Shown piece after piece: positions 8,032 to 37,450 of a stretch of 64,000 nt of DNA; the stretch's first letter is position 1; the number at the start of each line of letters is the position of its first letter. The translations under genes and the position numbers were made by a program. The notes beneath the pieces are model-generated. The model had not been told where the DNA came from. It made no database searches and worked only from the letters and a program-made list of their open reading frames with translations. The stretch is from a virus: positions 1-64,000 of IMG/VR virus record IMGVR_UViG_3300042384_001374; one strand, 5' to 3'.

Positions 8032-8067
8032 CCCAAACAAAAAGCCCCGCCTTTTCAGGGGCGGGGC
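8032..8067 (-). terminator. Intrinsic terminator after the scaffold-like gene
   Basis: On the minus strand, GCCCCGCC-CCTGAAAA-GGCGGGGC-TTTTGTTT. Confidence 0.7.
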
Positions 8068-18533: not shown

Positions 18534-18994
18534 GCGCGATGCTTACCATTCTCTCTCATCCGCTGCAATGCTCTTTCCTTGCCCTGCTGCAATGCCTGTG
18601 GCGCGTTTAAATGCGCGTCCGGGCACTGTGTCCCCAAACCACTCTCCAAACCATAGAATCCACACGTATGACCACACAACAAGCCATCCAAACCAATGCC
18701 AACATCTCCTACATCGAACCCGGTGATGACGGCATTACACCAGTAACCATTACTGTCAGCGCATGGGAAGCCATCGCTCTCACCGCACCATCGTATGCAC
18801 GCGCCAACCTCAAACTCCGAACCAATGGGCAGGACATTCTCCAACCCACATTCGAGCAAATGCTTGACGACTACCTCGTCGTTCACTGGGCAACCATCCA
18901 GCCTTTTAGCCGTGGCTAAAATCAAACGCCTCTCATAGCCCTTCGGGCGTGAGAAGCAACCACTCTCCCAAACAAAGAAAGACACACGCACCAA

Positions 18995-20842
18995 ATGAAG
19001 ACTACATCAGCTAGCACTTATGCCTCCGCGTTCATCGACACGATGGCGTATTCCGACATCAACGGCAACGTCGCCGAGTCAATCGAAGACGCGCTTGCCG
19101 CCAACTTCAGCCGTGACTTGTTCACGCCCACCCACAACCTGCCTGCCGACATCTTCAAATCAGACGAACTGGTTCACGTCATCAAGCCATCGTTGGTCAG
19201 GACAATGGCCCAAGAACTCGCCGCGTTCCACGACCGCCGCCGCTTGGCAGACGCGCGCTGGACCCAAAAATCCACGTTGTTCTCAAACTTCGGCCGCTGG
19301 CTGCAAGCGGACGAGAAGGCCATCGTAGCCAATGCCAAGGAAGGCTTGGAATCAGTTGAGGACCGCTTGGGCGTCCTGCCCTACGTAGTCGAAAAGATCC
19401 GCTCACGCAAAGCGTGGAAAGACGAGCAAAACGTCGCGCAAGACCCAACGAATTATGCGGACACCTCGCTCGACTACGATCTGCCGCCACGCACCAAAGG
19501 ACGCTCGCACGCTCCGGCGTATTACAGCATCACCGGACCAAGCGGTCGCACCATCGACCTGAGCCAACCGCACAACGCGTTCAAGCCGATCCTCTCATCC
19601 AATCCAAACGATGCGTTCCGACGCTTCATCACCCGCTTGGGTGTGGACCGCAAAGGCGGCGAGACCGAGTTGCTAAACCTGTTGCTCAAGGCCGACAAAG
19701 TGACTTGGGTCAATGCCAACGGCGAACCGTGCAGCGACTACAAGTGGCTGCCGAGCTACGTCAGCTCAATGCGCAACGGTGTGTGGTTCGTGATGGTCGG
19801 CTGGAAGCTCAACCCAAAGTGCCAATACGGCCAGTTCCACCGCGAGCTGCCTGACGGTTCGATGGTGATGCCGTTCATCGAGAACGCATCCGGCGAGCTT
19901 GAGCCATTCATCCCCGGCGTCCACATGGAGTCGGACATCCTCACCACTTCGCAACTCGACTACAAGCTGCTCTGCGAAGACAGCGGCATGGCAATCGTGG
20001 ATAAGAACGAGGACATCGTCGATTACATGAACGAGTCGGAAGAACTCGTCATGGAAGGCTTCATCCGCGACGACGACCACGCCGAAGAGGAGGTTGACAA
20101 CTGGCTGCTAATTCAAGCTGCGTCCGAAATGGACCGGATGATCGACCTACGAGTCGGTTCGGCAGTGTGGCTGATCGACGGCTTCGACGATCAGGTGTTC
20201 ACGCACACCCGCAGTGTAGGTGCAGAGTGCCACAAGCTAAAGATGCTCATCCGCGACAAAAAAGCTCAAATTGCCGCATTCGTCACATCAACGCCACCTG
20301 ATGGTTTCGATGCTGAGTCGCGCAATGCCGAAGGCAAAGACCTCGCCTATGCCTTGGAAGCACTCCAGAGCAAGCTCACGTCCACCCGCGCCAACTACCG
20401 CTTGGCCAGTGAGGATTTGAAAGCGCAAACGCGTCAAACACTCTGGGAAGATCGCCTGCCACGCGAATGCGTAGGCACACCACGCTCGTCAGCTCCGGAT
20501 GCCTTCAGCGCACCATTGCCAACAAGTGTGAATGTGCTGGGCGGGCATCCCATGGCAGGTGCGAACGTGACGGTCATTCAAGGTGCGTCTAACGAGCCGC
20601 GCAACATCGCGATTTTAGCCAAGGCTAAAGTAAACGCGGTCGAACGCATCGTCCCAACCGCCAATCCGATGCGCTTGTTGCAAAACGGCCTCACACGCCT
20701 CTGCACCACACCTACGGGCAATGTATCCACCCGGATGGCTGCAAAGCCTCCTGTGCGTCACACAACACCCGCAAACGCATCACCAAAGCTCAAGCGCACA
20801 TTGCTGCGCATGATGCTCGGTGGCAAGCCGCTGAATGCATAA
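18995..20842 (+). CDS. Hypothetical early protein (615 aa)
   Basis: Long ORF with phage-like codon use; no family recognised. Confidence 0.7.
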   Translation: MKTTSASTYASAFIDTMAYSDINGNVAESIEDALAANFSRDLFTPTHNLPADIFKSDELVHVIKPSLVRTMAQELAAFHDRRRLADARWTQKSTLFSNFGRWLQADEKAIVANAKEGLESVEDRLGVLPYVVEKIRSRKAWKDEQNVAQDPTNYADTSLDYDLPPRTKGRSHAPAYYSITGPSGRTIDLSQPHNAFKPILSSNPNDAFRRFITRLGVDRKGGETELLNLLLKADKVTWVNANGEPCSDYKWLPSYVSSMRNGVWFVMVGWKLNPKCQYGQFHRELPDGSMVMPFIENASGELEPFIPGVHMESDILTTSQLDYKLLCEDSGMAIVDKNEDIVDYMNESEELVMEGFIRDDDHAEEEVDNWLLIQAASEMDRMIDLRVGSAVWLIDGFDDQVFTHTRSVGAECHKLKMLIRDKKAQIAAFVTSTPPDGFDAESRNAEGKDLAYALEALQSKLTSTRANYRLASEDLKAQTRQTLWEDRLPRECVGTPRSSAPDAFSAPLPTSVNVLGGHPMAGANVTVIQGASNEPRNIAILAKAKVNAVERIVPTANPMRLLQNGLTRLCTTPTGNVSTRMAAKPPVRHTTPANASPKLKRTLLRMMLGGKPLNA

Positions 20843-21039
20843 GCCCTTCGGGCGGGAGATGAAAATGTCAGGAGAGAGTGGCGGGTTCGCAAGGACTTGC
20901 CGCTCTCTTGTCTGAAAGGGGCCTTGCGACATCGGGCCTGCAATAGCAAATCGACACGCAATACGAATACAGACAAACAGGGGGCGCGACCTGAACGCGC
21001 AACACAACAACCAAACTAGAATCGAACCTACCAAACATC

Positions 21040-21516
21040 ATGAATTCAGAAACCAACATCGAAAACACTGAGGCCCAAATCGAATTCCCAACCGCCGAGC
21101 TGACCGTCAACACGGGCTACATCAAACTGGAAGAGTCGCAAGACACTCCGGCCACCGTCATCACCGCCGAGCCACGCGTCAATGCAGGCGGCAAGCCATT
21201 CATCGCCCTCACGCTTCAACTCGCCGAAGGCCGCACCAGTCACAAAATGTGGGTTAGCACCCCGGCAGCCGCTGCAAATACACTGCGCCAACTCAACCGC
21301 GCATTCGGCATCAAGGCGTTCACCGAGTTGCCATCCATCGTCGATCAAAAGTGCAGCATTAGCTCGCGCTTCGACGACTACTCGCAGCGCATCACGGTGG
21401 CATACATCAACCGCTACAACGAACACGCCAACGACGTAGTGGACCTGTCCAGCCTTGACGCGCTTGCCGCATCCGTGCCAGAAACCACAACCGACCTCGC
21501 AAGCGTCGAATTCTGA
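21040..21516 (+). CDS. OB-fold/DUF669-like ssDNA-binding candidate
   Basis: ATVITAEPRVNAGGKPFIALTLQ beta-barrel pattern with an acidic tail ending in F. Confidence 0.4.
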   Translation: MNSETNIENTEAQIEFPTAELTVNTGYIKLEESQDTPATVITAEPRVNAGGKPFIALTLQLAEGRTSHKMWVSTPAAAANTLRQLNRAFGIKAFTELPSIVDQKCSISSRFDDYSQRITVAYINRYNEHANDVVDLSSLDALAASVPETTTDLASVEF

Positions 21517-21537
21517 TTCCCCCCCCCAACCCCCCCA

Positions 21538-21578
21538 GCCCGCCTGTGCTTAACCGCGCAGGCGGGTTTTCTTTTTGT
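21538..21578 (+). terminator. Intrinsic terminator
   Basis: GCCCGCCTGTGC-TTAACC-GCGCAGGCGGGT-TTTCTTTTT. Confidence 0.75.
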
Positions 21579-22318
21579 GACACTTCAATCATGAAAACCA
21601 CCAAAATCAGATCAATCTTCACACGCAGCCACGCGCAACTCCGCAAAGCCCGACGTGAATACATCAACACGCAGCGCCACGCCATCCTGCAATCCGCCGG
21701 AAACGACGTAATGCACGCTGCCATCTTGGAGATGATCGACTCGGGGCTCTATGCCAAGCCTGCGTCACGGCCCAAATCCGAGCGCTCGTTCCACGACTTC
21801 CGGTTCTCAGTCGCCAGAGCCATCTGGCAAATCGAAAAAGAAATTTGGGGAGCTGAACTCGTTGGGCAATGGCATTTCTGGACCACCCGCAATGGGTTCG
21901 ACATGCAGTTTGGCCGCAACCTCAAACAGCAAAAAATCGCATGAAAACCCGCATCTTGCTCCACCTTGGCTGCCTATTACGCCGTCCGTCCCACCTTGTT
22001 TGGCATTTACGCGGCATCTTACGTGAGTTTGCGCATTGACTCGACGTTTAGCCACGGCTAAAACTTTTCACACATCAATCATTCTATGAAAACAGAAACC
22101 TCCACCTACGTTCCCGGCTACTGGGTGCGCCGCTAAACCAACATGACAACAATCCCCACACCCCCTGAAGAATCCGGCACTGCACGCCGCGACCGTCATC
22201 AAGTCCATCAAACGTTGATGGAGGAACAAAAAGCCCGCATCGTCACCGCCCGCGAGCGGCACAAGCGCGACCACGGCCGCATCCGCTCGTATTCAGGGAA
22301 TTTCTACTAATTTTCCAA

Positions 22319-22657
22319 GCGGCTGTAATGGTTTCGACGTAACTGGAAGACATCAAATAGCATGCAGGGGTTGATCGACTGGCCCCTTTAACAAGTCGAT
22401 CACAGACCAACTGGCAAATTGGAACTCGCGGCCTAAGCCGCAAAACGGTTGGTGAAGCGCCCGCTCCGCACCAACTACAAACCGGGCAACCAAACGCAAC
22501 TCAGCGGCGTAAAGACTGAGTGGTGGAGGATGAAAGGAGCTGCACCACAGCGCCAATCGTCCCTCGGACTGGCCCACCGTGAAGGGCCAACCCATAAGCA
22601 TGTTTGAAGTTTGATAAAAAACAGTTGCGGACGCGGGTTCGACTCCCGCCAGCTGCA
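22319..22657 (+). ncRNA. ssrA: tmRNA (phage-encoded)
   Basis: 5' GCGGCTGTAATGGTTTCGAC and 3' GCGGGTTCGACTCCCGCCAGCTGCA. The acceptor stem has a G3-U pair. Predicted tag ORF GKLELAA* at 22413-22436 follows the AACT resume context. Confidence 0.9.
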
Positions 22658-22706
22658 TTATCTTGGGTTGCGCCATATACGCACGATTCACCGACGTAAT
22701 CGGTGA

Positions 22707-22874
22707 CCCCATATCCATCCATCGACGTGGGCGCGCAAAGTCGCGTTGTTTGAAGTAAAAGGCGAAATGCTGCCAGCTTCATTAAAACTACCTTGGCACA
22801 CAAGCTAGCTACTTGTCACAGCATGTGGAAAATTGCGATGAAGTGTGAGCGACCTGCGGTGGATGGACATGGGG
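22707..22874 (+). ncRNA. Rod-shaped structured RNA, 6S-like candidate
   Basis: 18-bp closing helix CCCCATATCCATCCATCG/CGGTGGATGGACATGGGG; inner helices TCGCG/TGCGA and ATGCTG/CAGCAT flank an unpaired A-rich bubble. Confidence 0.45.
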
Positions 22875-23157
22875 TTAAAGTTTGAAATGTAGCTTTCTCC
22901 CCACGGGACTTAATGACAACTCGCCCGATACCATGTGTTCCTTTGTCCGCTTCGCCCTCGTAAGGGGCCATTCAATAATCTGCGTCTGAAAACTGGACAG
23001 GAGCCGAAGGACCAAGGAGCACCTTGATAATCCTTCCCTGCCTGGTTCATAACGACGATCATGACAGGCCACCATTTTCTCAATGCCATGCTGCCCTTGG
23101 AACGGAATGCGTATCCTAGGAACGTCGCGTCCCTCTCGGGGCGGTGTGGCACCTCAT

Positions 23158-23247
23158 GAAGCAGCTAGTGTATGTGACGTTCCGACAAGACAGTGACACG
23201 CCCTCAGTAGGAAGGAATGCGTCGGTGCAATTCCGGCCTGCTTCACC
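23158..23247 (+). tRNA. Atypical tRNA-like RNA (enlarged D arm, imperfect anticodon arm)
   Basis: Acceptor GAAGCAG/CTGCTTC-ACC and T-arm GTCGG-TGCAATT-CCGGC. Confidence 0.5.
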
Positions 23248-23466
23248 TTTCTTTTTAGCCACAACTAAAATTCACACCATGAGCCAACTCATCGAAGGTC
23301 ATTCGTTTCTGACACACCGACCCAAAGCCACTTGCCGCGTGCTGTGGCGCGTCGCAAACAAGTTTGGAACAAGATACCGCTGGGATAAACAAACCTGCCT
23401 TCACGCCACACAAGCGGACGCGTATAAAGCCGTTGGCCTAGATCCAAACCAAGCTCCAAAAAAACC

Positions 23467-23769
23467 ATGACACCTGAAAAACAACGTGTAGCCATCGCGG
23501 AAGCGTGTGGGTGGAAGTGGGAAAGGCTTTGGACAGGAGAATTACATGGAAAACCTGTCGGAGAACAAGGGCCATTCCGTGAATTGCCCGACTACCTAAA
23601 CGACCTGAACGCGATGCACGAAGCGGAAGAATCACTGCATGGAAATCAATATGTGGAATACACAAATTTGCTTATTGAAATCGAAGGCAGCTTATTTGGA
23701 ATCAGGGCAACTGCCGCAGAACGCGCCGAAGCTTTTTTAAAAACTCTCAATCTCTGGATTAAATCATGA
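23467..23769 (+). CDS. Conserved phage protein (ABA-sandwich-like)
   Basis: AIAEACGW...PDYLNDLNAMHEAE...ATAAERAEAFLKTL pattern. Confidence 0.55.
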   Translation: MTPEKQRVAIAEACGWKWERLWTGELHGKPVGEQGPFRELPDYLNDLNAMHEAEESLHGNQYVEYTNLLIEIEGSLFGIRATAAERAEAFLKTLNLWIKS

Positions 23770-24350
23770 AAACCATCAACACTCTCGGGGAAAACTTTGA
23801 GAAACGGCATCAATTTTTGCTGCAAATTGCCAAGTTAAACGAGGTGGCCATCTGCGGAGGCTGCGCTGCAGCCATTTCGAAAGACCGTCAGGATTACATC
23901 CCAGCCGATCTCGATCTGGTTACCACCAAGGCCAACGCGCTGCGGTTTGTCGATGCGCTCAACCACTTCCTTTTGGACAAGCAGGTCCACTACCGAATCT
24001 ATGCCAACTGCCACAACGACTTTGTGCCAACACCAGCGACAGCACACTTCCGCATCCAATGCCCGTTCTGGGTGCCGGTTTGCTTGTTTATCATCCCGCA
24101 CGACAAGTTCCGCTATTACCGCATCCAAGGCGGGCATCTACTCCAGTTGCCGCAAGACGTGAAACAAGCAGCGGACGCCCTCACCGAGCGGGACGAAAAG
24201 CCGCGCCTCGCCAACGAACTGGCCGAAAAATTTGAAAACAACACCGAACAAATGGATTTGAACGACGACTACCACGACGTGTTCTTCGATCAGGAACCTG
24301 TCGAGTCTAATCCTTTCAACGGCCCCCAATCTTACACCCAATCTTTATGA
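23766..24350 (+). CDS. Nucleotidyltransferase-fold protein (putative)
   Basis: AICGGCAAA...PADLDLV matches the hhGG..DxD motif of the Pol-beta superfamily. Confidence 0.5.
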   Translation: MKTINTLGENFEKRHQFLLQIAKLNEVAICGGCAAAISKDRQDYIPADLDLVTTKANALRFVDALNHFLLDKQVHYRIYANCHNDFVPTPATAHFRIQCPFWVPVCLFIIPHDKFRYYRIQGGHLLQLPQDVKQAADALTERDEKPRLANELAEKFENNTEQMDLNDDYHDVFFDQEPVESNPFNGPQSYTQSL

Positions 24351-25195
24351 ACCGCCAAGAAGCCGTCGAATTGCTCCCGCTCATCGAAGCGTTCATCGCC
24401 GGAGAGACGATCCAATATCTGCAACACGCTGAAAAAAATCAAGCCCTTAGCGTGTGGCGGGACATAGATGACGTGCTCTTCACGGACGTTCCGCAGAACT
24501 ACCGAGTCAAGCCCACGCCTAGAGAGTGGGACATGTGGATAACTCCCAAAGGGGAGCTGACCACTAACAGCGACATGCTAATGCGCGAGTCAGTGCGGGT
24601 CCGTGAAATTCTTGACTAAATCTCTCGTTGAACGCCGCGACGAGCCAACAACGCGCTAGGCCGTGCTGATCGCCTGCCTGTCCGTGAAGCCGGGCAGCCA
24701 CCCAACCCGAACCGGATACGCTTCCTGCTTGCAGCTCCGGGTTCATTTCCCATCATCCGTCCCATGAGCGAACCATCCAAACCTGAGCCGGGCACTAAAG
24801 CGTCGCGACTCGCAGCCGCCAACGAACGCGTCATCTTCTGGAAAATCTGGGCAGAAGAAAGCATCGCGCCTGAATCCAAGGCCTATTTCAAATCACGTTT
24901 AAATCACTGGGAACGGACAGTGCAGCACATTGAAAACGAACCTGTTTAGCCACAACTAAAATCCCATGAAAGTTACCATTGCCGTCATCATACTGCTTTT
25001 GATTGCCGGGCGTTGCACAAGAAGCGCACGCAAAAGCGCTCTTGACGCGTCTAAGCCCATGTATGGCACCAAGTGTCAGCCAGATGCTTCAAAGCCTTTC
25101 TGACCTGCCTACAGCATCCACAAATCCCGCTTAAGCGCGTTGCGCGTGGGAAATAATCGTCTCCAGTCTCAAAACCAAGAAAGAACCACAAAATC

Positions 25196-26380
25196 ATGAC
25201 CTCAAACATCCCCATCCAAACCAAAAAAGCCATCTTCTGGAACTCGTCCATCATTGAGCCCGCCGCTTGGGAGCTTCATGGCGTTTCCAGCAAAGATAAC
25301 CCGGACACCGCCATTGGCAGATTCGGGACTGGTGCTTGTTACTACATTGCCGTGCTGCTGCGCACCGGTCACAAGGTTTCCATCAAGGCCGCTGAGCAAT
25401 GGTATCATTTCGGGTTGATTGACATGGAGTTTCGCGGCAAGGAATTCCAGCGCGTCACTTGCAATGGCAAGGAGTTGTCGTTCACCACCCACTACGGCGT
25501 CAACTGGACCGTAGATCAAGCATACCGCGAAGTTTACGCCAACTGCGCGGATGAAGGCGGCATTCACTTTGTCGGAGAGCCGATGGATGACGGCACTTCC
25601 ATCATCATCGAAGGTGAAGGCGTCCTTGATTCGATGGGCCGACACGAAGAAATCTTTGTCGGCAACCGCGAGCCGTTGGCCGAAACCAAAATTGCCCGAA
25701 TCTACGAAGGCTCCGGCACCATCTACTTTCGCGGCGTCAAAGTGGGCGAGATTGAAAACGCGATGTTTTCTTACGAAATCCTCAACGATTTGGAGCTGAC
25801 CGAAGATCGCTCGATCAAACATCAATATCGGATTCCACAAGAAATCGGCAGAATGGTCTGCACCCAATTGAAAGACAAGAATTTGATTCGCCTCACTCTG
25901 GTTGCGAACGAATCCCGGTGGGAACACAAAATCGACTTTGACTGGACCACATGGAGTTCGGAATTCACCGAGGTTGCCACCGATTTGTGGAAAAACTCGC
26001 CGACCAAGCTGAACAAGCATGTTTTTAAAATGCTTCGAAAAAAAGTCAAAGACATCGGTTGGGAGGCCCGCGATATGGATGAGGACAAGGAAATCATGCT
26101 CGAAAAAGCCAAGGACTTCTTGAAACGCGCCGGATATGAAGTGACCGTCCCCATCAAGCTGGTGAGCAATGAAGACCAAAACAATATCGCGTTCTACTTC
26201 AACGACACCATCCACTTGACCGACAAGTCATTCGAGGAAGGCATGTTCCAATTGGTCCGCACGTTGATGGAAGAGAATTTTCATGCGTGGGGACACCTCG
26301 ATTGCTGCCGCTCATTTGAAGATTTCCTTCAAAAAGAACTCATCAAGCAGGCGTCAAAACGTCTGCGTGACCCACTTTAA
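25196..26380 (+). CDS. GHKL-type ATPase domain protein
   Basis: GVSSK...AIGRFGTG and REVYANCADEG GHKL-like motifs. Confidence 0.65.
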   Translation: MTSNIPIQTKKAIFWNSSIIEPAAWELHGVSSKDNPDTAIGRFGTGACYYIAVLLRTGHKVSIKAAEQWYHFGLIDMEFRGKEFQRVTCNGKELSFTTHYGVNWTVDQAYREVYANCADEGGIHFVGEPMDDGTSIIIEGEGVLDSMGRHEEIFVGNREPLAETKIARIYEGSGTIYFRGVKVGEIENAMFSYEILNDLELTEDRSIKHQYRIPQEIGRMVCTQLKDKNLIRLTLVANESRWEHKIDFDWTTWSSEFTEVATDLWKNSPTKLNKHVFKMLRKKVKDIGWEARDMDEDKEIMLEKAKDFLKRAGYEVTVPIKLVSNEDQNNIAFYFNDTIHLTDKSFEEGMFQLVRTLMEENFHAWGHLDCCRSFEDFLQKELIKQASKRLRDPL

Positions 26381-27044
26381 AAAAATACAGCTATCATCAT
26401 GACCGACATCAACACGTCACGCCCCAAAGGACTTCCAGAAGAATTTTCCAATCCACCACCAGCTCCAGAAGGAATGCGCTGGAAATATCGAGGAATTGGA
26501 TGGGAAGCACCTTCTGAAACAATCTCGGCCAATTACAAAGACGGAAATTGGCACATCGCTCGCGCGTTCGGAAGCATCCTCCATCATTATCTCGAAGCGA
26601 TTCCCATCAAGCCAAAACCACAAGTGTGGACGTTTGAAAGCAAAGGTTGGCAAGAAATCAACAACTTGCGCAAGCAAATCAAAGATTTGACCACAATGCA
26701 TTTTTACCAGCGCGATCAAATCAACGAGCTTGAAGCACGCTTGAACGAAGCACTTTGTTTGCTCAATTCCATTGCTGAAATCGCCGAACAACGCGAACTT
26801 TAGCCGCGACTAAAATGACTCTTGATTCAAATGGCAAACAAGTAAAAGCGGGCGACTTCATCACCAGTGCGTATGGCATCCCCCCTAAGGCCATCCGGGG
26901 CGAAGTGTTCCGCAAAAATGGAAGACTGCGCGTGCTGACGCCCGGTCACAATCCGGCGGAATGTTCGTTGGTAACTTTCAGGAAATGTCTCGGCGATTTC
27001 TGGAAAGAAGAAATAGGATAAAACCCTACCTTTGCCAAAATCCT

Positions 27045-27073
27045 TTGACAAAATCCGACAAAAACCATATAGC
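27045..27073 (+). promoter_or_regulatory. Sigma70-like promoter
   Basis: TTGACA-17 nt-TATAGC. Confidence 0.55.
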
Positions 27074-28601: not shown

Positions 28602-29042
28602 TTGCCCAGTTTCCTTGAAAGCCTGCCGGATGACGACAAAAGAAAACACACCACCAACCCGACAACAGCACTAAACGCCACGCCCACCGTGAGACAGCAC
28701 TTCACAACTTCAGGCAAGCTGACTTTCGGAAAACACCGTGGGAAGTCGTACAAGGAAGTGTTGTTCAAAGATCCTTCGTGGATCAAGTGGGCCGGCCTCA
28801 ACATCGACGGCTTCAAAGAAGCGGTGGCGGCACTTAACAAGCCGGTCAAGCCGAAGCCAAAGCCCAAGCGCCAAACTAAAGAACAAGCGGCCGCAACCGC
28901 CGCCTTCAATAAACTCACCCACAACGAACGCTTGGCCATGATAGCTGAGCGCGTTCGCGCTAGGGAATGGATGGACGAACCGCTCGTTCACGGTTTTCTT
29001 GATTCGTTCACAGCTTTTGACCCTAAAACCGCTCCTTATTAA
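28602..29042 (+). CDS. Protein with FGKH motif (exonuclease X C-terminal/DUF3820-like)
   Basis: LTFGKHRGKSYKEVLFKDPSWIKWA; start uncertain. Confidence 0.55.
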   Translation: MPSFLESLPDDDKRKHTTNPTTALNATPTVRQHFTTSGKLTFGKHRGKSYKEVLFKDPSWIKWAGLNIDGFKEAVAALNKPVKPKPKPKRQTKEQAAATAAFNKLTHNERLAMIAERVRAREWMDEPLVHGFLDSFTAFDPKTAPY

Positions 29043-31288
29043 ATCATGCCATCCTTCTCTCTAGACTTTGAAGTTTACTGCGGCACTTGCGGCGCGGGAC
29101 TTTGCAATCAATCCAATACCCGAACATCGCGTCATCGAGGCGAGCCCCAAGTGACGGTGGAAGTGTGTCAAGACTGCGTACAAAAAGCACTTGCTCCGCT
29201 AGAAGACAAAATTGAGCTGCTTGAGTCGCAACTGGAAGACGCTCAAGAGCAAATCAGCCAACTCGAAGAACTCGTTTCTTGAGCCCTCCGGGCGTGGGGA
29301 ATAAATGTTCACCATCAAACAAACAACATGACACTAGCCCAACTCATCGAAGCCTGCGGAGACGACGTGACTTTTCAAGTCCTTAACGCCTGTCTGCACG
29401 GCAACCAAAAACTGACCAAACACGGCACCCAAATCACCTTTATTGCACCGGGCATCGAATTAGTAGATTTAGTGCGCAAAGAACCCGATCAAATGGGATT
29501 TGTAGTGTGGTTGCCAGGATCTAAGGTCAGGGAAATTCAAAATTCGTTGGAATGATTGTGCTCGCCTTCTTTTTCTCAGGCATGGCCGTATTGCTCTTCC
29601 AGCAGGCCGTAGAAGCCTTCAAAAGAGTTTACTGCGACTGGACAGCCATCCTTACTTACAAGCCCGTCAAATGCCGCTACAAGCCCCACAAATCTTACTC
29701 CGTCATTTTCAAAGCATGAAGCTTTTCAAACTCCGGCTTCGTTTGAAGTCCGCCCGCAAAAAACTCGCCGAGCAAAAAGAAATAAATCGCAAGCTCTACG
29801 AGCAACTTTCCGTTTCTACCGCCAAGAACAAAACTCTTTACGCCGACAACGTCACACTCAGATGGAACGCACGCAACCCATGAATCCAATCAACTTGGCA
29901 CTTGTTTCAAATGGCTGGAAAATATGGCCCAATCCATTTGGTGAAAAACAAACGACTTTTTTGGCTAAAAGCTTTGAAGGTCACGCTAAATGTCGATGTA
30001 ACGAAACAAAAAACAAACAAATTGAAATCTACCACCACCACCCGCAAACAATCAGCGGTCACCATCTCTACGCTACATGGAGCATTGAATGCAATGGAGA
30101 GCTTCCTGATGGTGAATGGCTAAGAATAAAAGTTGGTGGGCTTACAGATTTAAAAACCATTGAAGAAATGGTCGAAAGACTGCTTTTTATTTGGGATCAC
30201 GCTGTTTCCATCACCCCAAAAATCCCTAAACATGACCGATAACTCGCCTATCAACATCTCCAAACAGCCGGTGCCTGAAGGTTGGATTCTCATCGCAGGC
30301 AAAAACCTCACCAACATCGCTCGCCCCGCCAAAATTGCGTTCCGCATTGCAGAGTCATCACCCGCAAAATGCGGCCACCCAATTTCCGCAGGCATTATTA
30401 TCCAAACACAGGACAAAGAAGCGTGGGATGCGGCACAAGCCAAAAGCGAAGCCCGCAGAATCAGAGAGTCTGTTTATCCATCCCGCACCAAAAAAACCTC
30501 TAGCAAACCATGAACACGTCCGTCATCATCCCCGCCAAGATCCAAAACACCGCTCCGAAACCGACAAAATCCCAGCTTGCCGAAGCTTTGTTGGATCGCG
30601 CTTTCAAAGCACATGTAGCCAATGAAGCTGAAAAAGAACTCAAGCGTTCCGCATTGGAAGAAGAAGGATTCAAATTGGTCATTGAGGAGTTCAAAAAAGT
30701 CATTCCAAAATCGGAAAACATCAATTTTTACAACCAATGGAGACCCGGTTGCGAAGCAAGCGTGACTGTTTCCGTAACGTCGGCCAAAATCAAAGCCATC
30801 CAAATCAAACTATCCAAGCTTCACGAATGCAGCTTCGACCGGGACGGAACCAAAAAGCGCATCACCGATGGCCTCAAAACCCCCAATCCGTTGCTTGGCA
30901 ATGAAGACACGGCCAAAGCTCTGGACGCGCTCCTTGCCACTTTGATGGCTCCGCAAACACCCGCTTTGATTACCGTAGATGTATGAGCGCGTTGCGCTTG
31001 AAAAAAATTTGTCATGATTATCCAACCCAAACTCAACTTTGCCTTGCTCGGCACGGGATACGACAAGCAAAGGCTTGATAACACCCGCACCTACACCGCT
31101 CGACTAGCTATCAACCAGCCCGACTGGCAAAAAATGGGCAAGGTTTTCGTTTCGTTCGACAACGATGACGAAGAGCCATCCATACTGCTTAAACGCAACG
31201 ACTACGACATCATCGAAGCTTAATTTTAGCCGTGGCTAAAAAACCGCTTTCAAAGCCTGCCTCATCCCGCCACGTTCCCAACTATTCC

Positions 31289-32140
31289 ATGACCGATCAA
31301 TTCAAAAAACAACTCCAAAGCTTTCCAAGTCCGTTTTTACGGGCAATGCAGAACAACGTTTACACCAAAGGTGATTCGCAGTTTAGCGTCACCCAGTTGA
31401 TCGGCCCTCCGCAGCGAACATGGCTGGCGACACTACACGAGAAGCAGGAGACGCCTTACAGCTCGTTCGCCGCCTTCCTCGGCACCGCAATGCACGCTGT
31501 CTTGGAAGCCAACGTAGACCCATCACAAGGCGAAATCGCGGAAGAGCGCATGTTCGCCACCATCTGTGGAGCCAAAGTGAGTGGCCAGCTCGACCATCTT
31601 GAGAAAAAAACGTTGTTCGATTATAAGACGACACGCGGAGCGCAAGACGCGATGAAGCCAGACCACCGAACACAGGTAAATGCGAACGGCTACCTTGCCA
31701 CCCTCAACGGACACGAAGTGGAGCATGTCGCCATCGTTTACATCCAAATGGATTGGTCCTACATGCAGAGTAGTTTAAACCCTCTGTATCCTCAAAGCCC
31801 TTACAAAATCTTTGTTGAAGACTACGACCAGCAAAGCGCTATTGATTTTTTCAACCGCGCCATCCCCGAACACCTCGCCGCGCTCGAAGGAAAGCCCCGC
31901 GAATGCACACGAGACGAAAAATGGCAAAAAGACGACAGCTACGCTCTGATGAAAACCGGAGCCAAGCGGGCATCCAAAGTTTGCTCTACACGCGCCGAAG
32001 CCGAATCTTTGATCAAGCCCGGCCAGTTCATTCAAGAACGTCCCGGCGAACGCACTTTTTGCTCTTCGTTCTGTGGATTCAATCAATGCCCTCAAAAAAA
32101 GCGTGAAGACGCGAAATCTGTAAAACCAGAAGAACCATAA
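31289..32140 (+). CDS. PD-(D/E)XK (Cas4/RecB-like) exonuclease
   Basis: FSVTQL, GTAMHAVLE, SGQLD, DYKTT and a C-terminal Cys cluster. Confidence 0.8.
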   Translation: MTDQFKKQLQSFPSPFLRAMQNNVYTKGDSQFSVTQLIGPPQRTWLATLHEKQETPYSSFAAFLGTAMHAVLEANVDPSQGEIAEERMFATICGAKVSGQLDHLEKKTLFDYKTTRGAQDAMKPDHRTQVNANGYLATLNGHEVEHVAIVYIQMDWSYMQSSLNPLYPQSPYKIFVEDYDQQSAIDFFNRAIPEHLAALEGKPRECTRDEKWQKDDSYALMKTGAKRASKVCSTRAEAESLIKPGQFIQERPGERTFCSSFCGFNQCPQKKREDAKSVKPEEP

Positions 32141-32830
32141 ACTCCGATACCTGCTTTTGTTTGATGTTTATCGTCTTAATCGGTGGTTGCTCGTTTACCG
32201 CACATTCATGGCACAATGTCCTCAAAGAAGAAAAACGAACCCAATCGGTCGAACGCCTCGAAATCCTCAAAACCACCGGAAAAATTCCTGAACGATGAAA
32301 AAGAAATTGATCAAGCCCGTGTTGAAGCGTGAAGAACGCTGGAAACTTGGCAAGCTGACCTGTGCCGAGCTTGCCGAGTTGGTGGTCGCCGCGCTGGAAA
32401 CCGACATCAAGCGCAATGACACGAACGAAGCGCTGCGCCTGCGCTACGCCCACGCGCGCAACCTCGAACTGCTCAAGCTGTGCGGCACGCTTAAGGCGTC
32501 CTACCATGCCGCCCACTGCCGCACGGCCGTCCACTTCACCAAGGTGCCTACGTTGGTGCTGACGGCCACCGGAGGCAAGCCTAAGGCGTCTTCGATGCCG
32601 CCGTTCACCGCGTCACTCAAAAAGCTGGCCGCTCAACACGGGGTTGTCATCCATCGTTTTGGTAAAGGCGCTTTCATCCTCGCCAAAAATCCCCCAAAGC
32701 CTAAACCCGTCACTACTGGCCTTTGTGACAAATCATTCAGTCTTGTCCGTTAAGCGCGTTGCGCTTGGGAATTAAGAGCTTTCCAATTTGTTTTAGTTTC
32801 GGCTAAAATCCACACCAACCACACACATTC

Positions 32831-33439
32831 ATGCAAACCTCAGAATCCATTTCAGAAATCGCCGGAGCCATGGTGCTCGCCCAGCAGGCGATGCTTCCGC
32901 TCATCAAGGACAGCAACAACCCGTTTTTCAAATCCAAGTATGCCGACCTCCAAGCAGTCACCGAGGCGTGTTACCCGGCGCTTCAGGCCAACAGCATCTG
33001 CGTGATGCAGTCGGCGGAGTCGCTTGGAGCACTCGGAATCAACATCAAGACCCGCCTGATCCACAAGAGCGGCCAGTTCATCGAGACCGAGTGCGCCATC
33101 CCGCCTGCTGGCCAAGACCCACAGAAATACGGCTCAGCCGTCACTTACGGCCGCCGTTACGGACTCCAAGCTGCCGTGGGACTCGCCGCGATTGACGACG
33201 ATGGGGAAAGCGCCATGAACCGCAACGCCACCAAGCCAGCCGCACAACCCGAAACCACACCCACCCCGTCCGCCACCAACAACGACCCGGCAGTCGTGGA
33301 AAAAATCACCTCGGTGTTTTGGCAGCAGACCACATTGGCCGGGCTTAACGAAATGATGGCGTTGGCCAAAACCAAAGGCTACGGCACGCACAAGGACGTG
33401 GTGTCCGCCTACGACGAGCTAAAGGTCAAGCTCGCCTGA
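32831..33439 (+). CDS. erf: ERF-family single-strand annealing protein
   Basis: KDSNNPFFKSKYADL, LIHKSGQFIE and QKYGSAVTYGRRYGLQAAVGLAAIDDDG. Confidence 0.9.
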   Translation: MQTSESISEIAGAMVLAQQAMLPLIKDSNNPFFKSKYADLQAVTEACYPALQANSICVMQSAESLGALGINIKTRLIHKSGQFIETECAIPPAGQDPQKYGSAVTYGRRYGLQAAVGLAAIDDDGESAMNRNATKPAAQPETTPTPSATNNDPAVVEKITSVFWQQTTLAGLNEMMALAKTKGYGTHKDVVSAYDELKVKLA

Positions 33440-33455
33440 TTCCCCCCCCACCAAT

Positions 33456-33556
33456 GAAGCGGCGGCGTGAAGAAGTCCTAAGCACGCAGTCTGTGAAAGG
33501 CTGGAGGGAATTCACTCAACCTCGGCTTGCCGGTTTAAGGCCCGGCCCGCTTCACC
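33456..33556 (+). tRNA. Atypical tRNA-like RNA with long variable arm
   Basis: Acceptor GAAGCGG/CCGCTTC-ACC, D stem CGTG/CACG, anticodon stem CAGTC/GGCTG (loop TGTGAAA), variable arm GAGG/CCTC, T-arm GCCGG/CCGGC. Confidence 0.55.
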
Positions 33557-33584
33557 CACTCTCACCACACACAAAACAAACGAA

Positions 33585-33866
33585 ATGTCAGAACAATACC
33601 AAATCAAAGGAACCGTCAAGCTGGTCGGTCAAACCGAACAAGTCAGCGACAAGTTCAAGAAGCGCCAAGTCGTCATCACCACGCCGGATGAAAAATACCC
33701 GCAGGATCTGGCGGTTGAATTCACGCAAGACAAATGCTCTTTGCTCGACGCCATCAACGTCGGCGACGAAGTGACCGCTTCCATCAACCTGCGCGGCAGC
33801 GAATACAAAGGTCGCTATTACGTCAACCTGACCGGCTGGAAGATCGAGACCGACCAACCATTCTGA
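33585..33866 (+). CDS. DUF3127-family OB-fold (SSB-like) protein
   Basis: FKKRQVVITT.DEKYPQ...EFTQDKC...NLRGSEY.GRYYVNLTGWKI. Confidence 0.85.
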   Translation: MSEQYQIKGTVKLVGQTEQVSDKFKKRQVVITTPDEKYPQDLAVEFTQDKCSLLDAINVGDEVTASINLRGSEYKGRYYVNLTGWKIETDQPF

Positions 33867-33870
33867 TCCA

Positions 33871-34338
33871 TTGGCCAGCATCCACCAACTCACGACGGCG
33901 GTAAACGGCCAAGACTTCATGACCATCGACAAGGTCACGGTGTCGCGCCAGATGCCGCCGAAAACGGCTCGAAACAACAAGCTGTATTCGTTCGTCGTGC
34001 TGAAAAGCGCGGGGTCTGAAATCACGCTGTCGTTGTGGGACGATGCCGCCAAGTGGAAGTTGCCAGAAGGCGAGATGACCCTGCGCGGTAAGTTCGTCAA
34101 AGAAGACTACCAAGGCAAGCCGTCGTTGCGTTGCGAAGACCTGAGCCCGCCTGAAGGAGCCACGGAGTTCGCCGCGTCCGAGATTGTCGCGGCAGTCACC
34201 AAGCCCTCCATCAAGGATTGCCTTGACGCAGGGATTCGATGCGCCGACTACATGGTCACCAAAAAGCGGCCGGAACTTGCACCTACGGCTTTCACCTTCG
34301 GAGCCAACGCCCTGCTTGCAGGACATCGGCTTGAATGA
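33871..34338 (+). CDS. OB-fold-like hypothetical protein
   Basis: VLKSAGSEITLSLWD...GKFVKEDYQGKPSL pattern. Confidence 0.45.
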   Translation: MASIHQLTTAVNGQDFMTIDKVTVSRQMPPKTARNNKLYSFVVLKSAGSEITLSLWDDAAKWKLPEGEMTLRGKFVKEDYQGKPSLRCEDLSPPEGATEFAASEIVAAVTKPSIKDCLDAGIRCADYMVTKKRPELAPTAFTFGANALLAGHRLE

Positions 34339-34341
34339 CTT

Positions 34342-34391
34342 GGAGACGCCGAGCTAGGAGCAAGAGGGTTCGAGTCCCTCCGGTGTTCTCC
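34342..34391 (+). ncRNA. Minimal tRNA-like element (acceptor plus T arm)
   Basis: Canonical T arm GAGGG-TTCGAGT-CCCTC; closing helix GGAGACGCCG/CGGTGTTCTCC; only a tiny hairpin between them. Confidence 0.45.
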
Positions 34392-34447
34392 CTCACCTTC
34401 CCCTGCTGCGTTCACCGTGCAGACAGACAGACCGGGAAGACACGGTG

Positions 34448-34500
34448 CTCGTTGCAGGTTTGCGTTCTTTGTCGTTTGTGACCTGCAACGAGTTTTCTTT
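34448..34500 (+). terminator. Intrinsic terminator
   Basis: Perfect 12-bp stem CTCGTTGCAGGT/ACCTGCAACGAG followed by TTTTCTTT. Confidence 0.65.
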
Positions 34501-36629
34501 CTGCCGTTTCAGCATGCTTGACACCGCCAAAAATTTTCAACAAAAACGGGCATGGCAAAAACCAAAGCAAAACCCACCAAAGGCGGTGGCAAAGGCATGG
34601 GCAAAGGTTGCAAAACCTGCTAATGCGTCAGAGTTGCCGGTCTCTTCAAAACCGGATTATTTTCTACTGCTCCAGCAGCAAGCGGCTTGCCGCGACCTGT
34701 AAAGCATGGCCAACAACACTGGAGGAAGAAGGCCCCAAAAAACGTTTTGGTAAATGCGGTGAACCATCACCAATAGCGTGAAATCGGTGACACATCGGAA
34801 AGACGGTGCCTTAGGCATGGAGTGGCGCGGTCGTAAGCCGCAGTTCACACCCATAAAACCGACAGTAGCGTCAAGCTGTCACCGGATACGGTCACCGGAC
34901 TTTTTTTAGCCACGACTAAACCAGCGCTCGGGATGACTCAGATAATCCTACTATGAGCTGCGGAGTGCGCGCCCTGAAACTCCCGGCAAGCAAATGTAGA
35001 CATATCCTCTGATGACCAGTCCGGGAAAGTAGCGGACACACCTTCCTCCGTGACCATGGATAGCATGGAACGAAGCGCCAGCAAGTGGGCGAGCCACAAG
35101 AGAGGTCCGTGCTTAGGCGGAACCCTGATCCAGACCGGGAATTATCTAGACGCACATGACAGCGGAGCGATACGCGCTGTCACTTCAATGGTCGGCGTCT
35201 GAGAAGGGTATCGAGTTTGGGGCACGGCCCACGCGCAAGCGGTCATAACAGTCCTCAATAACGACGAGCTAGCCCGGCCACCCCTTTCCTTTCACATCTT
35301 TTGATATTGCACAAATCCTGATTTTCACCTACATCCAACCATCAACGGGAAGGACGTTGCCACTAATGAGCTTAGCCGGGGGGCAAGCTTGGTGCGGTGG
35401 TAGCATCCTTCCCGCCTTTTTTTATGACAATCTACCTCTACAAAACCGCGAAAACTGGAAATGCGCTTCAACAGGCCAAATTGCATCGCGTCCATGAAGA
35501 TTCGGCGATTCAAGCATTGCTGGGACTGATGGTTTTAGAGGAAGAAAATAATCTCGTATTGGTTTTGCTGGACGGGGCCAAATTGGATCGACAAATGATC
35601 ATCGAAAATCTTTGTTTCAACCGCGTTCCGGTCATTCTCATCGTGGCTTCCTCTTTCATCCAGTTCAAATGATCCTATCCGACAAAGCCTTAAAGCTGCT
35701 CCGACTCGCACTCAGCGAAGTGAATCCACATGAGGCAGCCAGCGCGGCCGTTATGTTCATGGCTGAACTCAGGCGTGAAGGAATTACAGCGGAACGGTTC
35801 GAAGGATCGCCAGTGCCGAAAGGCTTCACCCGTGTGAAACGTGAGGATGCTCGTCCTGCGGCTTCAATGCCTCATGCGGGACAAAGCGCCAGCCAAGACA
35901 TTCAAACGCCTTCTAGGACATCTCAAGCACCAAAGAACAACTCTTACGGAGCCTACGAGGGAGAACAGTTGCAGTGGGTATATGAAAACCGTCACCGACT
36001 CTCGAAAAAGATGGCTGCTGCCGTCGTCGAGGAGATGGAGGCGCGTGGATTAATCTAAATTTTAGCCATGACTAAAAAACAACATCCACTTTGCGACATG
36101 TCCAAACCATGGGGCGTGATCAAGTTTGTCCACTTTCGTGACGGCTCCGAAAGGAAATTTTACTCCATGGTCAACAAAATGACAGGCAACCGCATGACGG
36201 CGTTTGATAACGATCCTCCGGGAATTAATGACCCGATGCCATGGATCAAATCGGTGTTCAAGGACATCAGCAAGAAAGCCACCAAAGTTATCGAATACCA
36301 AGGCACCAAGCACTTCCAATGAAAAACTACATGCTCGATGTTGCCTTCACGGTTGAAGGTCCGTGGGACGAAATGGAAGATATTCCTACCGAACAAATTC
36401 TTCTCGGTCTTCAACGCCGACTCACTTCGCTTCTTGAGGCACACACCAACAAAACCGAAGACGTTACCGAAGCTTTCGGTTTTTGCGATTCCTACGAAAT
36501 TGGCGACCCTCCAATTAGTTCCTTTCGTGAAGTGTTGCAACCCAACCCGATGAGAGGTAAGTGGGGAACTGTAATTGAAGCTGATGGGACAGAACGTCCT
36601 GCTGAACCTAATCCCAACTGGAAAACTCC

Positions 36630-37109
36630 ATGAAAATCATTCTCGCAATCGACCCCGGCAATAAACAAAGCGGATGGGCGTGTGTTCAAGACGGCAAGTT
36701 GGTCGGAAGCGGCGTGCTCCCGAACAACGAATTGCTGCATCTCAGCGCTTTCCAGACGGCCGACGTGCTGGCTATCGAGTGGATACAGGCGATGGGCATG
36801 GCGGTAGGTCAAGAGGTGTTTCAAACATGCATGTGGGTCGGGCGGTTTGTTCAGGTCGCAAAAACTTTACAAAACCGTCCAGAAATCCGTTTAGTGCCAC
36901 GCGGAGTCATCAAGCATCACCACTGCGGAAAAACAACCGCTAAAGACGCAAACGTCACTCAAGCACTGCGCGACAAGTATGGCGAAAAAGGAACCAAGAA
37001 AGCTCCCGGCTACTTCTTCGGAGTTTCGTCTCACGCATGGCAGGCGTTCGCCGTCGCCGCTTATATCATCGAAGGCGGAACCCACGCCAACGAAATACAC
37101 CCTCTATGA
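36630..37109 (+). CDS. RuvC-like Holliday junction resolvase
   Basis: ILAIDPGNKQSGW, LAIE, VGRF and HAWQAFAVA. Confidence 0.8.
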   Translation: MKIILAIDPGNKQSGWACVQDGKLVGSGVLPNNELLHLSAFQTADVLAIEWIQAMGMAVGQEVFQTCMWVGRFVQVAKTLQNRPEIRLVPRGVIKHHHCGKTTAKDANVTQALRDKYGEKGTKKAPGYFFGVSSHAWQAFAVAAYIIEGGTHANEIHPL

Positions 37110-37450
37110 TAACGTCCAAACAAGAAAAAGCCGCCGCCATTTATCAAGCCACACTTGCTGTCGCTTCATTTTACAACATCCAAGCCTCTTTGTTGTTGTC
37201 TGAATCCTCATCCAAAAGCAAGCAGCTCAACCGAGGACGAGGTTTGCTGATGAGCCATTTGTTTCGTCAAGGAATGTCGCACGTTTCCATTGGCCGCATC
37301 GTGCAACGATCCACTGACACCGTGCGCACTGGAATTACCCGAGCCGATCTCGATGTCACCGCAGACGAACGCCAGTTAATGGCGGTGTTGCCATTCATTC
37401 CCCATACCATTTTAGCCACAATTAAAAAGCCCTCCGGGCTTGAGAAGTGA
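37106..37450 (+). CDS. HTH DNA-binding protein (DnaA C-terminal-like)
   Basis: RGLLMSHLFRQGMSHVSIGRIVQRSTDTVRTG. Confidence 0.5.
   Translation: MITSKQEKAAAIYQATLAVASFYNIQASLLLSESSSKSKQLNRGRGLLMSHLFRQGMSHVSIGRIVQRSTDTVRTGITRADLDVTADERQLMAVLPFIPHTILATIKKPSGLEK

Follow-up and report, generated by a model that had tools for sequence, protein, structure and literature searches.

A short triloop hairpin recurs at gene junctions of the early/middle block in the genome of an uncultured phage. The element is real and lineage-wide, and it is constrained as a structure. We tentatively propose, at a probability of about 0.4, that these hairpins are transcription start signals of the early and middle genes that act as folded DNA, as the hairpin promoters of N4-like phages do. 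The source genome is 76,099 bp (~76 kb) in length, and the window, that is, the whole stretch of DNA presented here, spans its positions 1 to 64,000. Two complete relatives (G1 and G2) and ten further loci of the lineage were used for comparison. The lineage consists of diverse, uncultured phages with genomes of 67–80 kb; homologues of its giant protein form some 70 clusters at 50% identity, and the closest relatives, with 86% and 73% identity, lie on a 57-kb Logan contig. Megablast and tblastn searches of INPHARED with the early region or a terminase-like ORF matched no phage record, and a single-protein scan of IMG/VR for relatives found nothing. The genome comprises a rightward early/middle block that runs convergently towards a giant virion-protein gene, which ends the leftward late block. 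The order of modules between hairpins varies among this genome, G1, and G2. The features considered are as follows.

18937..18956, + strand: hairpin copy 1, A-GCCC-TTC-GGGC-G followed by TGAGAAG (33.0 bits)
18995..20842, + strand: 615-aa ORF, lineage-specific
20842..20861, + strand: hairpin copy 2, A-GCCC-TTC-GGGC-G followed by GGAGATG
20872..20909, + strand: 17-bp perfect stem just 3' of copy 2 (z = -4.3)
21537..21577, + strand: canonical intrinsic terminator, 13-bp GC-rich stem and T-run
25134..25153, + strand: hairpin copy 3, A-GCGC-GTT-GCGC-G followed by TGGGAAA
29282..29301, + strand: hairpin copy 4, A-GCCC-TCC-GGGC-G followed by TGGGGAA
30986..31005, + strand: hairpin copy 5, A-GCGC-GTT-GCGC-T followed by TGAAAAA
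32753..32772, + strand: hairpin copy 6, A-GCGC-GTT-GCGC-T followed by TGGGAAT
37428..37447, + strand: hairpin copy 7, A-GCCC-TCC-GGGC-T followed by TGAGAAG
46366..46385, + strand: hairpin copy 8, A-GCCC-GTC-GGGC-T followed by TGGGAAA (31.3 bits)
50700..64000, - strand: giant ORF (5,280 aa), convergent with the early/middle block and continuing to genome position 66542

Seven of the eight copies had been listed in the earlier note, and each was recovered with the same position and sequence; the copy at 46366 is new. The consensus in this genome is A-GCSC-NNN-GSGC-K-TGRGAA. The pattern AGCSCNNNGSGCK has 12 matches, palindromic matches being scored on both strands, whereas 100 shuffles gave 1.9 on average and never more than 7. 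When the full 76,099 bp were scanned, the motif with the TGRGAA tail was found at eight places only, all on the + strand. All eight copies are located at gene junctions of the early/middle block, and in six of them the first A doubles as the last base of a TAA or TGA (five of the seven listed earlier, as had been reported). The stops at copies 20842, 29282, 30986, and 32753 close ORFs whose codon-usage score is coding-like in three cases and near zero in one. Copy 1 lies 46 nt 5' of the ATG of the 615-aa ORF, and the first A of copy 2 is the final base of the TAA of this ORF. An 18-bp palindrome is present 32 nt upstream of copy 1. Copy 3 is located 50 nt 5' of a 394-aa GHKL-like ORF (GHKL being the gyrase, Hsp90, histidine kinase, MutL ATPase fold), and the same position is occupied in G1 and G2. 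Copy 4 overlaps a TGA stop, with the next ATG 34 nt on; copy 5 overlaps the TGA of a 158-aa ORF, with an ATG 16 nt away at 31014, and the orthologous junction in G1 also has a hairpin. Copy 6 overlaps a TAA stop and has an ERF recombinase ORF (32831) downstream, copy 7 is found 5' of a DUF932 ORF at a junction that carries a hairpin in G2 as well, and the stem of copy 8 is followed by an ATG 7 nt later. Some copies are thus placed only 6–16 nt 5' of the next ATG.

Base pairing was analyzed in 16 copies from the three genomes. Stem cells are paired in 95% of cases, compared with 17–54% when the 3' partner is slid, and the covariation score is 0.26 versus 0.055 in shuffles, with 0 of 500 shuffles reaching 0.26. 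The compensatory C-G/G-C swap described earlier is clearly seen in these copies, with pair 10-16 being G-C in nine, C-G in seven, and unpaired in none. A survey of the lineage yielded 41 distinct sites from at least 12 genomes, with six Watson-Crick stem forms (GCGC, GCCC, GCAC/GTGC, GGCC, GACC/GGTC, and GGGC/GCCC). The stem is 4 bp long, a fifth A:T pair being added in 34 of the 41 sites, and the loop is exactly 3 nt in all 41. The coding-strand loop is TTC in 28 sites, TCC in 4, TAC in 2, and TGC in 1; on the template strand, 35 of the 41 sites therefore carry a G-N-A loop closed by C:G (GAA 28, GGA 4, GTA 2, GCA 1). An invariant G is located 2 nt beyond the stem, inside TGAG, GGAG, or TGGG tracts, and a stop codon finishes exactly on the first A in 19 of the 41 sites. 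The two promoter classes proposed in the earlier note are not a feature of the lineage. The GTT loop is peculiar to this genome, and before the GHKL-like gene both relatives carry TTC. The hairpins are covered by no Rfam family. A UNCG RNA tetraloop is impossible in register for the dominant GCGC class, and a double-stranded operator for a dimeric protein was rejected because half-site sequences vary within a single genome yet remain complementary.

Conservation in relatives was checked with a covariance model, for which matches with E < 0.1 were considered significant. The motif was found in both complete relatives, with 5–8 co-oriented copies in each of G1 and G2, and more copies were found in the ten further loci. 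All significant matches in this genome, G1, and G2 are on the gene strand of the early/middle block, with none in the late block, and 26 of 27 matches in the ten further loci are co-oriented with genes. The model gave no significant match in 912 kb of other, unrelated phage DNA. A hairpin precedes the first large gene of the early/middle block in all genomes, and no copy is present at the convergent end of the block. The 615-aa ORF is flanked by hairpins on both sides in this genome, G1, G2, and most of the ten further loci. The hairpin goes with the gene on its downstream side: before the GHKL-like gene it is retained in the three genomes despite a change of upstream neighbour.

Other signals in the region were also compared. 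The earlier note had described second hairpins behind several copies. As part of the element these were rejected, being at chance level (z +0.9 to -0.9), and only the 17-bp stem after copy 20842 stood out; G1 and G2 have analogous long stems in the corresponding position. The terminator at 21537..21577 closes the first hairpin-bounded unit, and its position is conserved in G1 and G2. A twister ribozyme is located near the hairpin region, at 17729-17792. Sigma-70-type sites are not enriched (5 versus 10.4 expected, and 10 versus 9.0), and none lies beside any hairpin copy. The Bacteroidota -7 box is enriched in none of the three genomes and is depleted in this genome (14 versus 30 expected); its single match near hairpins lies 176 nt past a G1 copy.

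The suggested resemblance to N4 virion-RNAP promoters agrees with the N4 record (EF056009), which shows 5-bp stems, 3-nt TTC/TCC loops closed by C..G, and a downstream G-rich tract. The non-template strand reads GTTGC-TTC-GCAAC-TTAT-GGA in P1 and GAAGC-TCC-GCTTC-TTTT-GGA in P2. The coding-strand TTC and TCC loops of the lineage are identical to those of P1 and P2, and the heptamer GC-TTC-GC of its GCGC class is that of P1. Stems of N4-type hairpin promoters are 5–7 bp, and those of Pseudomonas phage LUZ7 at least 4 bp; the central base of the template-strand loop in such promoters is usually a purine. In the N4 promoter loop, -10G and -12A form a sheared pair, and a G-N-A triloop in DNA is hyperstable (PMC4496689). 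The virion RNA polymerase gp50 transcribes from the early promoters P1–P3 of N4, and N4 and LUZ7 transcripts begin at a G 11–14 nt away from the middle of the loop. With nine early and four middle promoters of this kind in LUZ7, several scattered copies in one genome are nothing exceptional. The lineage shares with N4 and LUZ7 a GC-rich stem of 4–7 bp, a 3-nt loop that on the template is G-N-A with a C:G closing pair (35 of the 41 sites in the lineage, four of eight copies here), a G/purine tract a few bases downstream, and co-orientation with early genes; the convergence of the early/middle block with a giant virion-protein gene is also N4-like. Several features differ from N4. The G tract lies 1–2 nt past the stem in the lineage but 4 nt in N4, and template -8 is G or C depending on the stem class, whereas N4 fixes template -8 G and -9 C. 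The lineage has 5–8 copies distributed across about 27 kb, compared with three at a genome end in N4, and half of the copies in this genome have loops other than G-N-A (GTT in three, GTC in one). Most structural proteins tested have no PHROGs family match and none matches an N4-type family, and a gp50-like or RNAPII-like polymerase was undetected in this phage. To our knowledge, hairpin promoters have so far been known only from N4-like phages, in which they are read by a dedicated T7-type polymerase.

If the hairpins are promoters, the inverted repeat would extrude or become exposed as a single strand, and the template strand would fold into a 4–5 bp stem capped by a G-N-A triloop with a C:G closing pair. 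The hairpin shape and the adjacent conserved bases (template 3'-..M-A-C-Y-C..5') would be recognised by a polymerase or an initiation factor, and RNA would begin in the purine-rich K-K-G-R-G-A tract, a few bases beyond the stem. The covarying structure, the N4-type loop, the downstream tract, co-orientation, confinement to one block, and association with the downstream gene all support the promoter reading, as do the lack of terminator features and of any other enriched promoter type. From these we infer action in DNA rather than RNA, the start-site role, and a reader of the hairpins. Covarying hairpins are more often RNA than DNA elements, which counts against a promoter. Also against it, no RNA polymerase was found, four of the eight loops in this genome are not G-N-A on the template, and a stop codon ending on the first A equally suits a 3' end or RNA punctuation.

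The earlier note had suggested that an injected polymerase might read the motif. This found no support: the giant ORF showed no T7/N4-type or two-barrel RNAP signature in the searches described here. Sequence, profile, motif, and partial-fold searches recognised no RNA polymerase in this genome or its relatives. Segments of the giant ORF and large unknown ORFs gave no RNAP match in Pfam, PHROGs, or NCBIfam, and neither a PDB sequence search with the giant ORF nor a six-frame genome search with PF00940 found one. When each 1200-aa chunk of a 32-sequence family alignment was compared by hhalign with seven Schitoviridae mini-vRNAPs, the probability was 0.1% throughout. Residues 1501-4500 of the giant ORF had no tblastn match among 50,697 phage records (INPHARED). 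The giant ORF lacks DxDxD, and R-x3-K-x6-8-Y/F has no conserved instance in a 5-sequence alignment of it. AlphaFold modelling of the giant ORF covered residues 3900-5099, a segment that came out all-alpha and resembled no polymerase; the ESM Atlas gave no usable match for residues 1540-3560. Individual candidates were also rejected. The giant ORF contains a DGxSG ... DSSFFGG pair with T7-like spacing, but its aspartates are not near-invariant across the wider family, and the modelled region is all-alpha. The 398-aa ORF shows no similarity to N4 RNAPII, and the DVDYD motif of a 580-aa late ORF lies in a protein without a detectable homologue in G1 or G2. The 615-aa ORF matched no known family, and its AlphaFold model is poor (pLDDT 61), with no fold or RNAP-like match. 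We consider it unlikely that the hairpins are read by a polymerase neither T7/N4-like nor canonical two-barrel, carried within the 5,280-aa polyvalent virion protein or together with it. If true, this widespread uncultured lineage would offer a second and independent example of virion transcription that depends on hairpins.

A possible but less probable explanation than a promoter is punctuation at the RNA level, in which the hairpin in read-through mRNA would be a processing site, a protective 3' cap, or a binding site for a regulatory protein. A host or phage endoribonuclease might cleave in the K-K-G-R-G tract, and the upstream message would then be capped; T7 uses RNase III sites, and T4 RegB cuts at GGAG. 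The covarying stem with conserved complementarity, an orientation that always matches the mRNA, the upstream stops whose last base is also the first of the stem (19/41), and the GGAG, TGAG, or GGAT directly 3' of it are all consistent with such a role, as are the nearby use of RNA processing by the twister ribozyme and the failure to find a phage RNAP. However, the loop length is invariable, RNase III would need a longer stem, the late block lacks the element though it also needs stable mRNAs, and the hairpin follows the downstream gene as neighbours change. Moreover, no stable RNA loop is known with the conserved letters U-N-C, while the complement of these letters, G-N-A, gives a hyperstable triloop in DNA (PMC4496689). 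Termination or attenuation is very unlikely. RNA polymerase would be stopped or paused at module ends, maybe overridden by a boxB/N-like antiterminator, which would suit GC-rich hairpins that directly follow stop codons and bracket gene modules; the boxB elements of P22 and lambda are likewise GC-rich 5-bp stems. Yet the hairpins are not intrinsic terminators, because their tails (TGAGAAG, GGAGATG, TGGGAAA, etc.) have no T-run, strong canonical terminators are kept at other conserved places, and copies 6–16 nt before an ATG leave no room for a separate new promoter. The stem is only 4–5 bp, and the convergent block end has no copy. Lambdoid nut sites have a 5-bp stem, a 5-nt GNRA-like loop, and a boxA partner and occur once or twice per genome; the constant 3-nt loop, 5–8 sites per genome, and alignments without a conserved upstream box or boxA-like partner do not fit them.

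A signal in single-stranded DNA is also quite unlikely. The hairpin could be a priming or primosome-loading site on the lagging-strand template, or a break-point for module exchange, for which ssi signals, G4 origin hairpins, and PeSL-type cassette boundaries are models. G-N-A mini-hairpins do occur in ssDNA origins. The GC skew of the + strand is negative from about 8 kb on, even across the oppositely transcribed giant ORF, so the hairpin-bearing strand could be the lagging-strand template, and the three genomes differ in the order of their hairpin-bounded modules. Priming sites, however, would be needed genome-wide, whereas the hairpins are restricted to gene junctions of the early/middle block, at conserved distances to downstream genes. 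The PeSL (promoter-early stem-loop) cassettes of T4-type phages are similar in that repeated short stem-loops bound small early modules whose order differs between related genomes, but PeSL couples the stem-loop to a sigma-70-type early promoter, which the hairpins here do not have alongside.

An N4-like DNA shape is conserved in a lineage without recognisable N4 proteins or polymerase. Start sites of this kind would imply a polymerase or initiation factor that has so far escaped recognition, or else a known enzyme working on folded DNA in a setting new to it; as RNA elements, the hairpins would be a new and very compact punctuation signal for phage operons. Either way, the motif marks transcription-unit boundaries of the lineage, which can be annotated with the covariance model.

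The giant ORF was also compared with other large virion proteins. Like crAss-like phi14:2 gp66 and the tape-measure fusion of Thermus phage P23-45, both of which conceal an RNA polymerase, it is a very large virion-carried protein in a phage otherwise without obvious early transcription machinery, but those proteins carry the two-barrel DFDxD motif, which the giant ORF does not. As far as we know, their promoters are not hairpins. The C-terminal module of the giant ORF appears, from its model, to resemble the large polyvalent ejected proteins that phages and conjugative elements encode, a likeness that covers the giant ORF and not the hairpins; we know of no link between polyvalent proteins and hairpin signals. 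Its C-terminal 1200 aa matched BFVD entries in Foldseek with E values of 1e-8 to 1e-4 and TM of 0.2-0.4, including Flavobacterium and Tenacibaculum phage structural proteins. A further likeness to polyvalent proteins is the lysozyme-like domain embedded in the giant ORF at about residues 1380-1514.

All seven triloop hairpins proposed in the earlier note were present in this genome (copies 1–7; 18937, 20842, 25134, 29282, 30986, 32753, and 37428), and an additional, eighth copy was found at 46366. The complete motif, A-GCSC-NNN-GSGC-K-TGRGAA, has 12 pattern matches against 1.9 expected, palindromic ones being counted on both strands. A genome-wide scan restricted the motif to the eight sites, all located at gene junctions on the + strand. 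Four copies have as their first A the final base of a stop codon that closes an upstream ORF with a coding-like codon-usage score (near zero in one case). The distance from the 13-nt core to the next ATG ranges from 7 to 66 nt, with the exception of copy 2 (186 nt).

The parent IMG/VR phage record is 76,099 bp in length, of which the window is the initial 64 kb. Its ends share a 127-bp overlap within a gene, indicating a circular assembly of approximately 75,972 bp. Leftward genes (1–16 kb and 50.7–76 kb) are late genes, including a terminase-like ORF, tail proteins, a lysozyme, and a giant ORF. Rightward genes (approximately 17.4–50.6 kb) form an early/middle block encoding exonuclease, ERF recombinase, Holliday-junction resolvase, DnaB-like helicase, MazG, and DUF932. 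Pfam and PHROG searches assigned no family to most proteins of the genome, and no similar phage was retrieved from INPHARED with the early region, the terminase-like ORF, or giant-ORF residues 1501–4500 as queries. The features needed below are as follows.

about 8040–8067, − strand: canonical intrinsic terminator, after a 418-aa late ORF that may be the major capsid gene
21537–21577, + strand: canonical intrinsic terminator, 13-bp stem and T-run at 21537–21568; position kept in both complete relatives
25196–26380, + strand: 394-aa ORF (phrog_8203), downstream of copy 3
50700–66542, − strand: giant ORF, 5,280 aa, reaching beyond the window end at 64000

The hairpins are conserved in relatives, a check that the earlier note had called for. 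Two complete IMG/VR genomes, G1 (66,967 bp, 40% GC) and G2 (69,405 bp, 47% GC), were fetched whole. The 394-aa ORF carries a GxFGTGLKYAIAVLLR-type motif, which suggests a GHKL (gyrase/Hsp90/histidine kinase/MutL) ATPase, and its orthologues share 49% (G1) and 44% (G2) identity with it. A hairpin precedes this gene in all three genomes though the upstream neighbor changes; in G1, the upstream gene is one located downstream of the GHKL-like gene in this genome. Likewise, the lineage-specific 615-aa gene (18995–20842, + strand) has a hairpin on each side in all three, and the order of inter-hairpin modules varies among genomes. A covariance model trained on 16 hairpin copies found eight copies in this genome, five in G1, and seven in G2 (one a weak match, E = 0.54), all on the early/middle gene strand. 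Ten further lineage loci, retrieved via the 615-aa protein, contain 27 matches, 26 of them co-oriented, and in most of these loci matches flank the 615-aa gene on both sides. No match better than E = 0.1 was obtained in 912 kb of phages sharing merely a distant GHKL-like homologue, and in an exact-word scan of IMG/VR only lineage contigs carried more than one copy. Homologues of the 394-aa ORF are widespread in metagenomic phages, numbering hundreds (263 clusters at 90% identity, E < 1e-3).

Anatomy was counted over 41 distinct lineage sites. The stem occurs in six Watson-Crick forms, and the compensatory swap noticed earlier was confirmed, the third pair being G-C or C-G (9 vs. 7) and never unpaired in the first 16 copies. 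Since half-sites vary within one genome yet stay complementary, the folded form is under selection; a simple double-stranded operator is excluded on the same grounds. The loop is 3 nt long at every site (coding strand: TTC 28, TCC 4, TAC 2, TGC 1, GTT 4, GTC 1, TTT 1), and on the template strand 35 of 41 loops read G-N-A closed by C:G. The second base 3′ of the stem is G at all sites, in the context TGAG, GGAG, TGGG, or GGAT, and a stop codon terminates on the first A at 19.

The likeness to N4 virion-RNAP promoters was judged on the non-template strand of the N4 early promoters (EF056009), P1 being GTTGC-TTC-GCAAC-TTAT-GGA and P2 GAAGC-TCC-GCTTC-TTTT-GGA. N4 promoters are conserved from −17 to +1 with a GC-rich heptamer centered at −11; the stem is required as a structure, hairpin stability is explained by a sheared pair between template −10G and −12A, the transition from double to single strand is between −5 and −4, and RNA synthesis starts eight nucleotides downstream of −8 (PMC4496689). 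The proposed resemblance holds for the lengths of stem and loop, the loop letters, and the C:G closure, which are identical, and the lineage's GCGC class also carries the P1 heptamer GC-TTC-GC. It fails in the G tract, which lies 4 nt past the stem in N4 but 1–2 nt in the lineage, in the −8 base, which is variable here, and in the loop, which in half of the copies in this genome (GTT, GTC) is not G-N-A. For the N4-like phage LUZ7, in which 5′ ends have been mapped, nine hairpin promoters are known in the early class and four in the middle class (PMC9163698), so the copy number and spread of the lineage hairpins are no mismatch.

We tentatively favor template-strand DNA-hairpin start signals (probability about 0.4), because loop length is constant at 3 nt with G-N-A/C:G chemistry, a purine-rich, initiation-site-like tract follows the stem, the hairpins are confined to the early/middle block, and each accompanies its downstream gene. 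RNA-level punctuation, with the hairpin acting in processing or stabilization, is somewhat less probable; stop codons adjoin the stem, covarying hairpins are commoner as RNA than as DNA elements, and polymerase searches were negative. A single-stranded DNA signal for replication or recombination is improbable. Least probable is a terminator or attenuator. The hairpins do not qualify as terminators: all copies lack a T-run, canonical terminators are used elsewhere in the lineage, and in none of the three genomes does the early/middle block carry a hairpin at its convergent end. Some copies lie only 6–16 nt upstream of the next ATG, so transcription either starts at the hairpin or reads through it. 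The 21537 terminator ends a unit of hairpin, 615-aa gene, hairpin, long stem, and a gene of about 150 aa. Sigma-70-like sites were not enriched (5 vs. 10.4 expected; 10 vs. 9.0), nor was the Bacteroidota −7 box TAnnTTTG in the three genomes (depleted here, 14 vs. 30 expected), which occurs near no hairpin except for a single match 176 nt beyond a copy in G1.

Failure to detect a polymerase is the weak point of the start-signal reading. The suggestion of an injected phage RNAP was not borne out by sequence, profile, or motif searches or by the model of giant-ORF residues 3900–5099. No RNAP was found with PF00940 in six frames of the genome, with Pfam, PHROGs, and NCBIfam in five overlapping giant-ORF segments or the large unknown ORFs, or with phmmer against PDB sequences. 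The hhalign comparison with N4 mini-vRNAP was negative, and a 32-member family alignment, split into 1200-aa chunks, gave 0.1% probability throughout against seven Schitoviridae mini-vRNAPs. The 398-aa ORF showed no BLASTP similarity to N4 RNAPII. The giant ORF lacks DxDxD, and no R-x3-K-x6-8-Y/F is conserved in its five-sequence alignment. The AlphaFold model of residues 3900–5099 is all-alpha (pTM 0.70) with no PDB match; in BFVD it matches chunks of "large polyvalent proteins" as well as Flavobacterium and Tenacibaculum phage structural proteins. Residues 1540–3560 had no ESM Atlas match. A lysozyme/TIGR02594-like domain occupies residues ~1380–1514, residues 800–1500 are variable, and YWVDEETLHLL (1787–1797) is nearly invariant. 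Homologues group into ~70 clusters at 50% identity, mostly 4,000–6,400 aa in length. The giant ORF is best described as a candidate ejected polyvalent protein. The 615-aa protein gave a poor AlphaFold model without match.

Shine-Dalgarno sequences are absent before start codons throughout the window. Leaders are A/C-rich and G-poor (e.g., CAAACAAACAACATG), a style common to all three genomes despite a GC range of 40% to 53%, which suggests a host with SD-independent initiation. Together with the BFVD matches, the leader style hints at a possible Bacteroidota host.

Other elements were observed in the same genome.

17729–17792, + strand: match to the type-P5 twister self-cleaving ribozyme (RF02684), 43 bits vs. 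gathering score 37.6; directly after an 81-aa ORF (17466–17711), in the interval separating the late block from hairpin copy 1
20872–20909, + strand: 17-bp perfect stem (RNA fold −32.8 kcal/mol, z −4.3)
22319–22660, + strand: full-length tmRNA match (RF00023), 111 bits, E 7.5e-43; early region

The tmRNA match sits downstream of the 21537 terminator and has no ARAGORN call; read in one frame, it yields a short tag that ends in ...GKLELAA before a stop. The palindrome TTTAGCCRYGGCTAAA has ~40 copies genome-wide with ≤3 mismatches (e.g., 5887, 7814, 16016, 17183, 18905, 22047, 31225, 45152, 55719, 59982, and 63495), mostly 0–30 nt ahead of a start codon, on either strand; the giant ORF contains four or five and the convergent junction one (50682), and the palindrome adjoins hairpin copies 1, 6, and 7. 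It is not multi-copy in G1 or G2 and is thus genome-specific, in contrast to the hairpin. The 17-bp stem, which may be a structured leader or processing site, lies between copy 2 and a 158-aa ORF, and similar long stems occur there in G1 and G2.
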